From contig NZ_JAGIBG010000001.1 in assembly GCF_017744435.1 (NCBI RefSeq), positions 163,556 to 227,555 on the forward strand: 64,000 nt of DNA, given 5' to 3'. The stretch comes from Pseudomonas sp. (GTDB lineage: Bacteria > Pseudomonadota > Gammaproteobacteria > Pseudomonadales > Pseudomonadaceae). The position numbers and the translations under genes are program-made. The first letter of the stretch is position 1, and each line of letters begins with the position of its first letter. Shown here in pieces: positions 34,471 to 55,018 of the stretch. The notes under the pieces are model-generated. The model saw nothing but the letters and a program-made list of their open reading frames with translations. It was not told the origin of the DNA and did no database searches.

Positions 34471-35877
34471 TCAATCGTTAACGCAAATCGCCCGACCCGC
34501 CTTCACGGCAGCCTTGCCGCGCGTCGCCAGGCAGTAGTACAGCGGCACCGTCACCAGCAGGCCAAACAGCCACGACAAGTCAGCCCCTTCGACAATGTTC
34601 GAATACGGCCCCACATACAGCGACGTGTTGGCAAACGGCAACTGCACCAGGATCCCGCAGGCATAGGCAATGATCGCGTGGTGATTGAAGCGGCCATAGA
34701 TGCCGCCGTCGGCACGGAAGATCGACGCGATGTCGTACTGGCCCTTCTTGATCAGGTAGAAGTCGATCAGGTTGATCGATGCCCACGGCACCAGCACCAG
34801 CAGCAGCGCCAGGATCAGGCCGATGAACTGGCCGATGAAGCCGGCCGACGCATTCAGCGCCACCATCCCGCAGCCCACCAGGATCACCGAAGCCAGGATC
34901 ACCCGCACCTTGATGCTCGGCGTCCACTCGGCGACGAACGTCTGGATCGCGGTAACGATCGACAGCACCGCGCCATACAGGTTGAGGGCGTTGTGGCTGA
35001 TGATGTTGAGCAGGAACAGCACCATCAGGATCGGGCCCAGCCAGCCGGTGGCCTGCTTGACCGCATCCATCGCGTCGGTGCCATCCGGCACGCACAGCAC
35101 CGCGATCGTGCCGAAGCTGAAGCACAGGATGGTGCCCAGGGTGGCGCCGAAGTAGGTCGCCCAGAACGGCTTGGCGATGCCTACTTCACGCGGCAGGTAG
35201 CGCGAGTAGTCGGAGGTGTACGGCGAGAAGCTGATCTGCCAGATGATGCCCAGCGACACCGTGGCGATGAAGCCCGACAGGTTGAACGCGCCGCGGGTCA
35301 GGAAGTCGGCCGGCAGCTCCTGGACGAACATCATGATGAAGCCGGCCAGCAGTGCCGAACCCATCACCCAGGTACCGATGCGGTTGAGGATGTGGATGAA
35401 GCGGTAGCCGATCACGCCGATGGCCGTCGCACTCAGGGCGCCGATCACGATCGCGCCTGGCATCGGCACGCTCGGGGCGATGCCATGGATGGTCTTGCCC
35501 GCCAGGACGATGTTGGAGATGAAGAAGCCGACATAGATCAGCGCGGTGAAGAACACGATCAGCAAGGCGCCGTAACGGCCGAACTGGCCGCGGCTCTGGA
35601 CCATCTGCGGAATGCCCAGCTGCGGTCCCTGCGCAGAGGCCAGGGCGATGAACACGCCCCCGACGAGATGACCCAGCACGATTGCGATCAGCCCCCACAG
35701 CAGGTTCAGGTGGAACACCTGGACCACCATGGCGCCGGTGACGATAGGCAGTGGCGCGATGTTGGTACTGAACCAGAGGGTGAACAGGTCGCGCGCCTTC
35801 CCATGGCGCTCGGCAGGTGGAACGTAATCGACCGTGTGATTCTCGACAAACTGGTGTTGCGACGACGGTTGGGACAT
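34471..35877 (-). CDS. NCS1 purine/cytosine-permease-family transporter
   Basis: YVPPAERHG..LFTLWF, GIPQMVQSRGQFG, SDYSRYLP. Confidence 0.92.
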   Translation of the reverse strand: MSQPSSQHQFVENHTVDYVPPAERHGKARDLFTLWFSTNIAPLPIVTGAMVVQVFHLNLLWGLIAIVLGHLVGGVFIALASAQGPQLGIPQMVQSRGQFGRYGALLIVFFTALIYVGFFISNIVLAGKTIHGIAPSVPMPGAIVIGALSATAIGVIGYRFIHILNRIGTWVMGSALLAGFIMMFVQELPADFLTRGAFNLSGFIATVSLGIIWQISFSPYTSDYSRYLPREVGIAKPFWATYFGATLGTILCFSFGTIAVLCVPDGTDAMDAVKQATGWLGPILMVLFLLNIISHNALNLYGAVLSIVTAIQTFVAEWTPSIKVRVILASVILVGCGMVALNASAGFIGQFIGLILALLLVLVPWASINLIDFYLIKKGQYDIASIFRADGGIYGRFNHHAIIAYACGILVQLPFANTSLYVGPYSNIVEGADLSWLFGLLVTVPLYYCLATRGKAAVKAGRAICVND

Positions 35878-35950
35878 AGGATTCAGCTCGAAAGGTCGTT
35901 TTTATCTTTGTAAGGAAACCGCATCTAGGCGGCCTCTCAGCTGCGGACCA

Positions 35951-35966
35951 TATTATGGTATTCCAA
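35951..35966. promoter_or_regulatory. GntR(FadR)-type operator copy 1, near the permease promoter
   Basis: TATTATGGTATTCCAA, a variant of the motif at 36122 and 38063. Confidence 0.55.
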
Positions 35967-36109
35967 ACTTTTGACAACACTGATCCGTAGGAAAAAACGC
36001 CCGCTGATCTGCTCGCACAACCCCTGCGACAAACCGCCTCAGCACTCTATCCCACGGTTTACGTGGCCTTGCGCCGTTCATCGTGAAAAACCACGGCTGA
36101 AAATTCCAC

Positions 36110-36143
36110 TTGCAAAATAGGTATTACGGTATACCATCAGACA
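36110..36143 (+). promoter_or_regulatory. Promoter with GntR-type operator (copy 2)
   Basis: TTGCAA-N16-TACCAT; TATTACGGTATACCATCAGACA at 36122-36143. Confidence 0.7.
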
Positions 36144-36193
36144 CATCAACGATAAAAACCGCGGACCACCGCAGCCCTTTAGAGGTACACCAG

Positions 36194-36679
36194 ATGATCG
36201 ACGCAAGCATCTACAAGAACGTCCTGGGCTCCTTCCCGTCCGGCGTGACCGTCATCACCACCCTGGACGACGACGGCTCGGTCGTCGGCCTGACCGCCAG
36301 CGCCTTCTCCTCCCTGTCGATGGACCCGCCGCTGGTGCTGTTCTGCCCCAACTACACCTCCGACTCCTACCCGGTCCTGATCAAGAACAAGCGCTTCGCC
36401 ATTCACCTGCTCTCCGGTGGGCAGCAGGCCGAAGCCTACGCGTTCGCCAAGAAGGGCAAGGACAAGGCCGCCGGCATCGAGTGGACCCTGAGCGAACTGG
36501 GCAACCCGATCCTGGCCGGCGCCACCGCTGTCATCGAATGCGAACTGTGGCGCGAATATGAAGGTGGCGACCACGCCATCATGGTCGGCAAGGTGCACAA
36601 CCTGATCGTCCCCGAGGAAGCGCCTCGGCCGATGGTCTACTGCCGCGGCAAGATGGCCAGCCTGCCGGCCTTTGCCTGA
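36194..36679 (+). CDS. Flavin reductase (TgnA/HpaC-like)
   Basis: GSFPSGVTVITT, ASAFSSLSMDPPLVL, GGDHAIMVG. Confidence 0.92.
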   Translation: MIDASIYKNVLGSFPSGVTVITTLDDDGSVVGLTASAFSSLSMDPPLVLFCPNYTSDSYPVLIKNKRFAIHLLSGGQQAEAYAFAKKGKDKAAGIEWTLSELGNPILAGATAVIECELWREYEGGDHAIMVGKVHNLIVPEEAPRPMVYCRGKMASLPAFA

Positions 36680-36754
36680 AGCCTATTCTGAATCGAGACA
36701 CCTGGCGCCTGCGCAGCCTGGCGACAGACACTTTCAAGCGTTGAGGAAAGCCCC

Positions 36755-54078: not shown

Positions 54079-54142
54079 GGGTTGATCACTCCTGGGTGAG
54101 GGGCACTAATTCCACACGAGAAATTTACTTTCCTCACAGGAA

Positions 54143-54158
54143 TGCAACGTGCTTGCCA
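54143..54158 (-). promoter_or_regulatory. Sigma54 promoter of glnT-glxBCD
   Basis: TGGCAA-GCACG-TTGCA on the minus strand, ~65 bp above the glnT ATG. Confidence 0.7.
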
Positions 54159-54191
54159 ACTCTGCCCGATGGCTGGTGTGTGTTTTCTGTT

Positions 54192-54272
54192 CCGGCCTCT
54201 TCGCGGGCACGCCCGCTCCCACAGAGATCGGCGCAAAGTCCCTGTGGGAGCGGGCGTGCCCGCGAAGAGGCC
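54192..54272. repeat. REP doublet inside the glnT regulatory region
   Basis: CCGGCCTCTTCGCGGGCACGCCCGCTCCCACAG plus an inverted copy. Confidence 0.9.
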
Positions 54273-54365
54273 AGTTCAGGCAACACAAAACCCATGCAGG
54301 TTTTTATGCTCTATTTATGGGAAACTTGTTTTCACCTGAGGAAAGAAGCAGCCAACGCAGCTGCA

Positions 54366-54388
54366 TTTCGCACTTTCCCAGTGCGAAA
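54366..54388. promoter_or_regulatory. Palindrome with NtrC-like spacing (candidate enhancer)
   Basis: TTTCGCACT-TTCCC-AGTGCGAAA; core CGCAC-N7-GTGCG versus NtrC TGCAC-N7-GTGCA. Confidence 0.5.
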
Positions 54389-54424
54389 ACTTTATTCTTG
54401 AACTGAAACCGTGCAGGACATTCG

Positions 54425-55018
54425 ATGCCAACCGAAACCCCACCGCGCCTTCGCCTGGAGCAGTACCTGGGCCTGCAGATCAAACGCCAGCGCCAGGCCC
54501 AGTCGCTCAAGCTCGCCGATGTGGCGCGCATCGCCGGCATCAGCCAGGGCATGCTGAGCAAGATCGAGAACGCCCAGGTGTCCACCAGCCTCGATACCCT
54601 GAGCCGACTGTGCGATGTGCTGGGCATGCCGATGGCCAAGCTGTTCAGCCAGTACGACCAGCCCGATGGCAATGCCTTGCTGGTCAAGGCCGGTGAAGGG
54701 CTGGAGGTGGTGCGCCGCGGCACCGAGAAGGGCCATACCTACCATTTGCTCAATCACGCCAGGGGGCCGAAGAAGAACTTCGAGGCGTACATGGTGACCA
54801 TGGACGACGCCAGCGAGGAATTCCCGACCTTCGCCCACCCCGGTACCGAGTTCCTGCATTTGCTGGAGGGGGAACTGGTCTATCGCCATGGCAACCAGCT
54901 CTACCACATGCACGCCGGCGACAGCCTGACCTTCGATGGCGAAACCCCGCACGGCCCTGAGCAGCTGGTACAGGTGCCGATCCGCCTGCTGTCGATCATG
55001 AATTACGGTGAGGAATAA
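54425..55018 (+). CDS. XRE-family HTH plus cupin regulator
   Basis: LKLADVARIAGISQGMLSKIEN; HPGTEFLHLLEGEL cupin. Confidence 0.92.
   Translation: MPTETPPRLRLEQYLGLQIKRQRQAQSLKLADVARIAGISQGMLSKIENAQVSTSLDTLSRLCDVLGMPMAKLFSQYDQPDGNALLVKAGEGLEVVRRGTEKGHTYHLLNHARGPKKNFEAYMVTMDDASEEFPTFAHPGTEFLHLLEGELVYRHGNQLYHMHAGDSLTFDGETPHGPEQLVQVPIRLLSIMNYGEE

Follow-up and report, generated by a model that had tools for sequence, protein, structure and literature searches.

Closest described systems and organization of the locus

Among the nitrogen-containing exudates and osmolytes of legumes, coffee, algae and seeds, trigonelline is a major one, and its degradation is reportedly encoded by the tgn cluster of Acinetobacter baylyi ADP1 (described, as is said, by Perchat et al. 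in 2018), in which the ring is opened by TgnAB, the product is oxidized by TgnC, and TgnD hydrolysis gives succinate semialdehyde, formate, CO2 and methylamine; the published pathway is said to stop at succinate and methylamine and to leave the recovery of nitrogen open. The N-methylglutamate (NMG) pathway was reportedly described by Latypova in 2010 for Methyloversatilis universalis FAM5, and the rhizobial glnT-glxBCD genes, which include an NtrC-dependent type III glutamine synthetase (GS), were historically read as encoding a third glutamine synthetase. The stretch analysed here is a 64-kb window of Pseudomonas sp. (the whole stretch of DNA, in whose positions all coordinates are given unless a contig is named), which harbors a tgn-type ring-cleavage cluster at 34471–43598 and, at 49730–55018, the genes glnT-glxBCD together with a divergent XRE-cupin regulator. 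Pseudomonas sp. C5pp grows on methylamine as sole nitrogen source via gmas-mgsABC-amt and purU-folD-mgdABCD (PMC8292978, reporting Kamini et al. 2018), with its mgd operon located 37.7 kb from the gmas operon, both operons induced by methylamine, and the gamma-glutamylmethylamide/NMG route being the primary route of methylamine use (PMC8292978). The homarine operon homABCDER, together with mgdABCD, passes its nitrogen via N-methylglutamate and NMG dehydrogenase (Ferrer-Gonzalez et al. 2026, PMC13236597). Both the tgn and the NMG pathways are thus already known, the latter having been characterized in Pseudomonas sp. C5pp, while in the searchable literature, which did not cover Perchat et al. 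2018, nothing was found that links trigonelline with gmaS, glutamylmethylamide, N-methylglutamate or methylamine use; the searches led only to the homarine study of 2026, whose operon is a different one.

We read the stretch, with reasonable though not high confidence, as a loose metabolic supracluster in which two known pathways are joined by a shared metabolite, methylamine, and not by a shared regulator. The pairing of tgn and NMG genes probably lets bacteria use the nitrogen of trigonelline besides its carbon. The first-pass annotation, made from the sequence of this stretch, had placed the tgn-like genes and glnT-glxBCD about 6 kb apart, and the measured distance from the end of the Nudix gene to the end of mgsC (6.1 kb) agrees with it.

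Compared with the NMG pathway of C5pp and FAM5, the window exhibits the same gene families in the same order, gmaS being followed by the three NMG synthase subunits, and the XRE-cupin regulator and the sigma54 promoter are conserved across Pseudomonas; as in C5pp, the mgd-folD-purU operon is located at a distance from gmaS. The differences are that the window operon lacks the terminal amt gene, in whose place a paralogous NCS1 permease converges, that the mgd genes lie on a different contig, separated from it by at least about 155 kb, that a pair of REP-type elements is inserted in the gmaS promoter, and that the NMG module adjoins a tgn cluster, a link unmentioned in the sources consulted. 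The rhizobial glnT-glxBCD genes share the gene names, the four-gene architecture and a nitrogen-type control with the window, whereas the window protein carries the signature of gamma-glutamylmethylamide synthetase (GmaS) and not that of GS. The homarine operon is alike in that a plant or algal N-methylpyridine carboxylate is degraded with its nitrogen passing through N-methylglutamate, but its enzymes differ (an FAD-binding HomA, HomB and a peptidase-like HomC), and the homarine ring leads to N-methylglutamate directly, whereas in the window methylamine would be freed and then re-captured by GmaS and MgsABC.

Identity of glnT-glxBCD and completeness of the N-methylglutamate pathway

The glnT-glxBCD genes, which the first-pass annotation had called homologous to gmaS-mgsABC, are assigned here from their sequences as orthologs and not mere homologs, that is, as a known pathway under an old name. 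GlnT exhibits a glutamine-synthetase fold of the type III/GlnT clade (Pfam Gln-synt_C, E 3e-103), it exceeds the cut-off of the family model listed in Table 1, and its best solved relative, PDB 9qur (672 bits, 66% identity), was deposited as 'Glutamate--methylamine ligase'. In the GmaS of Rhodovulum (RhGmaS), Ala replaces the ammonium-binding Asp50' of glutamine synthetase and Trp300 replaces the catalytic Glu of the Glu-flap; Asp177, Glu186 and Arg312 are strictly conserved catalytic residues in GmaS, and the methylamine pocket comprises Tyr147, Gln175, Glu179, Asn188 and Lys30' (PMC7948447). When GlnT was aligned to this structure (7cql), A50 and W309 were found at the Asp50' and Glu-flap positions, D183, E192 and R321 at the catalytic positions, and Y153, Q181, E185, N194 and K32 at the pocket positions. 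Directly downstream of gmaS, three consecutive genes carry the GATase_6/7, GXGXG and Glu_synthase domains of MgsABC, and they are 82–97% identical to their counterparts in canonical Pseudomonas islands; mgsC itself shares 95–97% identity with its counterparts in other Pseudomonas, 84% with that of Arthrobacter and 82% with that of Vreelandella.

No mgd genes were found within the window, as had been noted before, and of the two options then left for the final demethylation, encoded elsewhere or absent, a search of the genome for mgd and sox genes favors the former. Two SoxD loci were observed, on contigs C21 and C4; the locus on C21 is a classic glyA-soxBDAG-purU, whereas C4:102309–109094 contains purU-folD and a sox-like tetramer, a set that is 65–90% identical to the purU-folD-mgdABCD located beside XRE-cupin/gmaS in another Pseudomonas and only 38–43% identical to the soxBDAG of C21. 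By this identity comparison the genome encodes a sox-like four-subunit enzyme set separate from sarcosine oxidase and accompanied by folD and purU; the tetramer on C4 is assigned as mgdABCD, and the NMG pathway is predicted to be complete in this genome because purU-folD-mgdABCD is present on C4. The purU-folD-mgdABCD set ends 170 bp short of the contig end. The gene of the Amt-family transporter that ends the canonical Pseudomonas gmaS operon is absent from the operon of this genome, in which only a general amtB (64%) was found, on C27. Behind the XRE-cupin gene (55146–57600), where other Pseudomonas have the purU-folD-mgd operon, an EamA/DMT transporter and an RHS fragment were observed, which is consistent with a rearrangement at this border.

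The tgn-like ring-cleavage module

The cluster at 34471–43598 corresponds to the Acinetobacter tgn cluster in its gene content, for which the plasmid cluster of Acinetobacter sp. PK01, with genes named tgnA, tgnB and tgnC by PGAP, was used as a proxy for the proteins of A. baylyi ADP1. Both contain an AA_synth gene (F), a hydrolase (D), a reductase (A), a luciferase-like monooxygenase (LLM; B), an aldehyde dehydrogenase (ALDH; C), an NCS1 permease, a carboxymuconolactone-decarboxylase-family (CMD) gene and a GntR regulator, yet the identities are only 35–56% apart from CMD: 48.7% for TgnB, 52.6% for TgnC, 56% for the AA_synth protein at the same cluster position, about 38% for the reductase against tgnA, 55.6% for the NCS1 permease, 36% for GntR, 34.8% for the hydrolase and 79.5% for CMD. 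The order is B-F-D-C-A2-CMD-R-Nudix in the window versus F-D-A-B-C-P-x-E-CMD in Acinetobacter; the window has two small flavin reductases and not one TgnA of 310 amino acids, an extra Nudix gene, and no tgnE. An in-cluster succinate-semialdehyde dehydrogenase TgnE, which is present in the tgn clusters of Nitrincola, Vreelandella and Acinetobacter, is missing in the window in that no second ALDH lies between the flavin reductase and CMD, and paralogs of this dehydrogenase (60–63% identity) are located elsewhere in the genome, on contigs C27 and C7.

The adjacent reductase and LLM oxygenase form, at the level of homology, a two-component flavin oxygenase, and the TgnC-type ALDH and the TgnF-type AA_synth/DUF1185 protein of a tgn cluster are also in place. 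The LLM oxygenase shows 75–88% identity across phyla, from Pseudomonas to Streptomyces, Nocardia and Mycolicibacterium, and homologs with 75–79% identity are labelled in JGI as 'flavin-dependent trigonelline monooxygenase, oxygenase component', while a Pseudomonas homolog of the hydrolase with 77% identity bears the label '(E)-2-((N-methylformamido)methylene)succinate hydrolase', which is the name of TgnD; the putative TgnD of the window is also placed in the cluster where that enzyme would be expected. A dedicated transporter is represented by the NCS1 permease, other lineages having a BCCT transporter instead; the NCS1 type is not an oddity for a tgn cluster, because the Acinetobacter cluster matches gene for gene with its NCS1 permease included. 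Flavin reductase 1, whose open reading frame (ORF) opens at 36110 and whose likely start is the one listed in Table 1, accompanies tgnB and the permease in other Pseudomonas, and flavin reductase 2 has an equally placed counterpart in the tgn clusters of Nitrincola, Vreelandella and other Pseudomonas. The CMD gene was also found in the tgn clusters of Nitrincola and Vreelandella, the GntR regulator is kept in those of every lineage examined, and the Nudix gene comes after GntR in Nitrincola, Vreelandella, Ca. Njordibacter and Pseudomonas. The homarine operon homABCDER was considered as an identity for this cluster and rejected, as the enzyme families differ.

Linkage of the two modules in Pseudomonas and other lineages

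GmaS, TgnB and the hydrolase were located in the genomes of 251 Pseudomonas species, where TgnB and the TgnD-like hydrolase occur together in 141 of 142 genomes. Among the genomes with tgn, gmaS is present in 58 of 141, versus 6 of the 110 without tgn (both, 58; gmaS only, 6; tgn only, 83; neither, 104), which gives an odds ratio of 12 and a Fisher p of 1e-11 without phylogenetic correction. Of the 58 double-positive genomes, 37 have gmaS and tgnB on one contig at a distance of 5–30 kb, and in 14 further ones the two genes are on different contigs of draft assemblies. The first-pass annotation had named a lack of correlation between the modules across genomes as evidence that would speak against their link; this comparison, together with the juxtapositions in other lineages given below, points the other way.

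At least four gene orders of the two modules were observed among Pseudomonas, such as the fluorescens-type order mgdDCBA-folD-purU / XRE-cupin / gmaS-mgsABC-amt / tgnB-reductase-permease, with the remaining tgn genes at distances of 10 kb to 1.2 Mb; that of Pseudomonas sp. NPDC007930, in which hydrolase-ALDH-reductase-GntR-Nudix lies about 6 kb from a tgnB that abuts amt-mgsCBA-gmaS; that of P. taiwanensis, which is window-like and shorter (Nudix-Lrp-mgsC); and that of one further Pseudomonas species, whose island is turned with its regulator end toward the tgn genes. The distribution of gmaS is patchy inside the putida group too, where 12 of 32 genomes whose TgnB is at least 94% identical carry it.

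Outside Pseudomonas, mgsC was found somewhere in 14 of 27 tgnB-positive genomes, and broad phylum and order samples (401 genomes each) gave seven tgnB matches each. In Vreelandella (Halomonas) janggokensis (Halomonadaceae), XRE-cupin, IclR and mgdDCBA-folD-purU are followed by gmaS-mgsABC-amt-ribBA and then by the tgn genes (Nudix-GntR-CMD-reductase-ALDH-hydrolase-AA_synth, then BCCT-tgnB-ALDH), with no unrelated gene between the NMG and tgn modules. Two Actinomycetota, Arthrobacter sp. Bi83 and A. humicola, carry the tgn cluster directly before XRE-cupin, an M20 peptidase, a DAO-type FAD oxidoreductase, mgsC (84%), mgsB, mgsA, a GS-like ligase (gmaS) and amt. In Acinetobacter sp. PK01, the tgnA/B/C cluster lies inside a methylated-amine island on plasmid NZ_CP094644.1 (35.7–73.5 kb), flanked on one side by glxD-glxC-glxB-glnT, XRE, amt and dmm/tmm/tdm genes and on the other by mgdDCBA-folD-purU, and the same island was found in A. 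junii ZM06 on a plasmid of the same replicon type. The pairing is therefore recurrent in four distant lineages with different gene orders, which speaks against inherited synteny alone. The tgn gene set of the window is shared by Nitrincola and Mycolicibacterium, where a BCCT transporter goes with it.

Some side features of these islands were also recorded. The PK01 island includes two amt genes, a trimethylamine monooxygenase, a dimethylamine monooxygenase (dmm) and a Tdm-like gene, and can be described as a portable toolkit for methylated amines and trigonelline. In Arthrobacter sp. Bi83, the gmaS-mgsABC operon has a single DAO-type FAD oxidoreductase and the M20 peptidase in place of mgdABCD, and this oxidoreductase may be a candidate monomeric N-methylglutamate oxidase or dehydrogenase. 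Arthrobacter sp. fls2-241, with XRE-cupin and amt by tgnB, was dropped as a further instance, as its genome contains no mgsC.

Promoter and regulation of gmaS

The intergenic region between gmaS and the XRE-cupin gene was aligned for eight Pseudomonas species, and the sigma54 promoter earlier proposed for glnT was recovered: TGGCAAGCACGTTGCA is the only exact TGGCA-N6-TTGCA match in the window, and the -24/-12 element TGGCAAG-N4-TTGCATTC is invariant in 8/8 species, the sigma54 consensus being TGGCAC-N5-TTGCW with a -24 GG and a -12 GC element. This promoter is bracketed in all eight species by two conserved GAAA-N5-TTTC palindromes, a pattern that occurs three times in the window against 0.23 expected, and these palindromes are probably candidate operators of the XRE-cupin regulator. 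The gene of this regulator adjoins gmaS in Pseudomonas (83–90%), Vreelandella (62%), Acinetobacter (71%) and Arthrobacter (44–47%).

The NtrC-like palindrome that had likewise been proposed may be an NtrC site. It is present with the core spacing of such sites, and its TTCGCAC-N7-GTGC core is invariant in the alignment, but it is a single site with non-consensus inner bases, and the bare GCAC-N7-GTGC pattern is not rare (six in the window against 4.1 expected, a chance frequency), whereas NtrC sites have the form TGCACCA-N3-TGGTGCA and are usually paired. The palindrome lies 37–59 bp from the start codon of the XRE-cupin gene and, because it is so near, could instead be an operator of that regulator. 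The REP pair between the upstream sites and the sigma54 promoter is lineage-specific, being missing from the other seven aligned species. Between the leaders of gmaS and of the second permease, one common non-REP 10-mer was found, AATTTCTCGT, which is within chance expectation.

The NMG module would probably be gated by sigma54, that is, by nitrogen status, and probably also by methylamine. Nitrogen limitation, and probably methylamine too, should switch on the gmaS module, an expectation drawn from the sigma54 promoter with its conserved flanking sites beside the XRE-cupin regulator, and trigonelline breakdown would induce the module indirectly.

Proposed pathway and competing explanations

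In the proposed route, the NCS1 permease would import the betaine, the flavin reductase and the LLM oxygenase (TgnAB-like) would open the ring, the TgnC-like ALDH would oxidize the lactol, and the TgnD-like alpha/beta hydrolase would cleave the N-methylformamido intermediate to succinate semialdehyde, formate, CO2 and methylamine, with GabD-type dehydrogenases encoded outside the cluster converting the semialdehyde to succinate. We infer that the methylamine would then be handed to GmaS, which would join it to glutamate at the cost of ATP, and MgsABC would turn the product into N-methylglutamate; MgdABCD, FolD and PurU, encoded on contig C4, would demethylate this compound to glutamate, the methyl carbon going to tetrahydrofolate and then to formate, and the net outcome would be the release of nitrogen for assimilation.

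Several observations weigh against a coupling of the two modules, and some of them favor a competing explanation, in which they are neighbors by descent only and the NMG island is a self-contained mobile methylamine unit that landed or was retained near tgnB with no selected coupling. The distribution is patchy, 83 of the 141 tgn-positive Pseudomonas genomes lack gmaS, and the odds ratio given above is uncorrected for phylogeny; the canonical island owns an amt importer, the XRE-cupin regulator and mgd genes, works on external methylamine and needs no tgn. In many fluorescens-type genomes, only tgnB, the reductase and the permease stand by the NMG island while the hydrolase (tgnD) is 10 kb to 1.2 Mb away, and such tgnB-only proximity fits inherited synteny and selection equally well; further genes in loose synteny, the second permease among them, also lie around tgnB, and the REP elements and the RHS fragment indicate a plastic region. 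The genome of Halomonas sp. SpR8, which is closely related to V. janggokensis, contains no mgsC, which marks the NMG island as an insertion or deletion next to tgn, and no NMG genes were found in the 10–20 kb flanks of the tgn clusters of Nitrincola, Mycolicibacterium, A. venetianus and Arthrobacter dokdonellae pDCT5. Moreover, no operator common to the tgn and gmaS promoters was found, the shared 10-mers being REP elements only, and the two modules have separate regulators, so that the arrangement is a loose supracluster and not one regulon. Descent alone is nevertheless held to be an unlikely account, given the juxtapositions in quite different orders in Halomonadaceae, Arthrobacter (Actinomycetota) and Acinetobacter plasmids, for which the ancestry of one Pseudomonas chromosomal neighborhood cannot account, and given that two loci would fall within 30 kb of each other by chance in about 1% of 6-Mb genomes. 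What these points do establish is that the link between tgn and the NMG pathway is facultative and not a single regulon, because gmaS is missing from the majority of tgn-positive genomes, the island brings an amt and a regulator of its own and can work on external methylamine, and gmaS is often near tgnB and not near the hydrolase.

The remaining explanations concern the substrates. Trigonelline as substrate is our inference, because the hydrolase is 35% and TgnB 49% identical to the Acinetobacter (ADP1-type) proteins. The coupling could accordingly be real with a related N-methylated pyridinium as its substrate, for example N-methylnicotinamide or a further N-methyl betaine, and a third compound of this kind might be the one taken up by the second, sigma54-driven permease; besides the 35–56% identity to ADP1-type proteins, this would fit an LLM oxygenase of a distinct subfamily, 75–88% identical internally across phyla and about 49% identical to the Acinetobacter/Rhizobium type. 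We give this explanation a low probability, as each of the genes F, D, A, B, C, NCS1, CMD and GntR has its counterpart in the Acinetobacter cluster, the JGI names of close homologs are those of TgnB and TgnD, and trigonelline is the plant compound that abounds in the rhizosphere, where these genera live. Still less probable is that GlnT-GlxBCD does not serve methylamine, and is a minor type III GS with a split glutamate-synthase-like partner or acts on another primary amine, e.g., ethylamine. Such a role would agree with the legacy annotation of the glnT product, 'type III glutamate--ammonia ligase', with the several amines accepted by GmaS enzymes (PMC7948447) and with the operon of this genome being without amt, but, like GmaS, the protein has Ala and Trp where a true GS has Asp50' and the Glu-flap Glu, it shares 66% identity with a structure deposited as a glutamate-methylamine ligase, mgdABCD-folD-purU is present in the genome, and the same operon type is methylamine-induced and the primary route in Pseudomonas sp. 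C5pp (PMC8292978).

The supracluster reading offers, through the recurrent pairing of tgn with gmaS-mgsABC-mgd, a direct and testable answer on how nitrogen is recovered from trigonelline, together with an ecological reason for the retention of the NMG pathway in non-methylotrophs. It complements the 2026 homarine result, as homarine, the 2-carboxy isomer, also drains through N-methylglutamate (PMC13236597), and it suggests that gmaS, a common marker for methylamine users, reports partly on the use of pyridinium betaines. Hundreds of Pseudomonas genomes carry the common annotations 'type III glutamine synthetase / glxBCD' and 'LLM oxidoreductase / 3-oxoadipate enol-lactonase', which this reading also corrects. 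The lineage of the window looks more specialized, with tgn consolidated, amt lost and mgd elsewhere, and it may be speculated that internal methylamine is its main input. A broader proposal, which we put forward tentatively and regard as possible but doubtful, is that plant trigonelline and not free environmental methylamine is the main methylamine source sustaining the NMG pathway in non-methylotrophic soil and marine heterotrophs, the P. putida-group lineage having gone furthest. If this were true, the front half of the NMG pathway in the P. putida group would have lost its methylammonium importer, been split from the dehydrogenase half and become enclosed by the consolidated tgn genes and a second, paralogous permease driven by sigma54, and gmaS-mgsABC would serve a system for scavenging nitrogen from pyridinium betaines as its arm dedicated to the salvage of internal methylamine.

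Features of the locus and intervening genes

The features of the two modules and of the region between them are listed in Table 1.

Table 1. Features annotated in the tgn-type cluster, the intervening region and the gmaS module, by position in the 64-kb window.
Feature	Position	Strand	Basis
NCS1 (cytosine/purine-type) permease, TgnP-like importer	34471-35877	-	Pfam Transp_cyt_pur, E 9e-47
Flavin reductase 1, TgnA-like	36194-36679	+	NCBIfam HsaB/HpaC-type flavin reductase matches
Luciferase-like flavin monooxygenase (LLM), TgnB-like ring-opening oxygenase	36755-37795	+	LLM family
AA_synth/DUF1185 protein, TgnF-like	38118-38714	+	Pfam PF06684, E 1.5e-71
Alpha/beta hydrolase, TgnD-like, putative methylamine-releasing step	38783-39616	+	Abhydrolase_1 family
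Aldehyde dehydrogenase, TgnC-like	39613-41094	+	ALDH family
Flavin reductase 2	41108-41593	+	NCBIfam flavin reductase matches
CMD-family protein, conserved tgn accessory	41791-42180	+	Pfam CMD, TIGR02425
GntR/FCD regulator, TgnR-like	42269-43033	+	NCBIfam GntR matches
Zn-ribbon Nudix hydrolase, conserved tgn accessory	43035-43598	+	Pfam NUDIX, Zn_ribbon_Nudix
Hybrid PAS-GAF histidine kinase/response regulator	43673-45838	+	Pfam PAS_4, GAF, HisKA, HATPase_c, Response_reg
Two tandem LysE-type exporters	45879-46520, 46578-47192	-	Pfam LysE, E 3e-31 and 3e-20
Lrp/AsnC regulator, divergent from LysE exporters	~47304-47756	+	NF008370, Pfam AsnC_trans_reg; start from translation
Putative sigma54-type promoter TGGCACCCTCCTTGCT, near-consensus, 150 bp upstream of second permease	47980-47995	+	Pattern scan
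Second NCS1 permease, paralog of the first, convergent with mgsC	48144-49583	+	62% identity to first permease
mgsC (glxD), FMN glutamate-synthase-domain subunit of NMG synthase	49730-51055	-	Pfam Glu_synthase, E 2e-90
mgsB (glxC), GXGXG-motif subunit	51071-51745	-	Pfam GXGXG; start refined from translation
mgsA (glxB), class-II glutamine-amidotransferase-like subunit	51772-52677	-	Pfam GATase_6, GATase_7
gmaS (glnT), gamma-glutamylmethylamide synthetase	52744-54078	-	TIGR03105, 676 bits (cut-off 470)
GAAA-N5-TTTC palindrome GAAAGTAAATTTC, just downstream of -12 element	54120-54132	-	8-species alignment
Sigma54 promoter TGGCAAGCACGTTGCA	54143-54158	-	Exact pattern match
Inverted pair of REP-type elements, ~100 bp, between upstream sites and sigma54 promoter	54195-54290
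GAAA-N5-TTTC palindrome, upstream	54321-54333		8-species alignment
NtrC-like palindrome TTTCGCAC-N7-GTGCGAAA	54366-54388		Core spacing GCAC-N7-GTGC
XRE-HTH/cupin regulator, divergent from gmaS, conserved NMG partner	54425-55018	+	Pfam HTH_3, Cupin_2

The second NCS1 permease faces glnT-glxBCD, as the first-pass annotation had described for a paralog of the permease of the cluster; orthologs of it (90% identity) were observed about 7 kb from tgnB in fluorescens-group genomes, and its putative sigma54 motif suggests that this second, paralogous permease is nitrogen-regulated. The histidine kinase, the LysE pair and the Lrp regulator could be tied to neither the tgn nor the NMG pathway; the hybrid histidine kinase is found behind the Nudix gene in several putida-group relatives and is absent in P. 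taiwanensis. A plus-strand ORF of 376 amino acids at 45744–46874 was rejected as a real gene, being the shadow of the minus-strand LysE genes and showing no family match. In the tgn clusters of several phyla, the Nudix gene stands behind GntR, often with a RibBA or riboflavin kinase gene close by, a neighborhood that hints at a role in the supply or salvage of a cofactor (flavin or NAD) in the tgn pathway. Inverted REP pairs of the P. putida type (core CTTCGCGGGCA/TCGCCCGCTCCCACAGG) were observed in five intergenic regions of the 20-kb stretch, at 37870–37985, 41615–41710, 47770–47870, 49640–49710 and 54195–54290.

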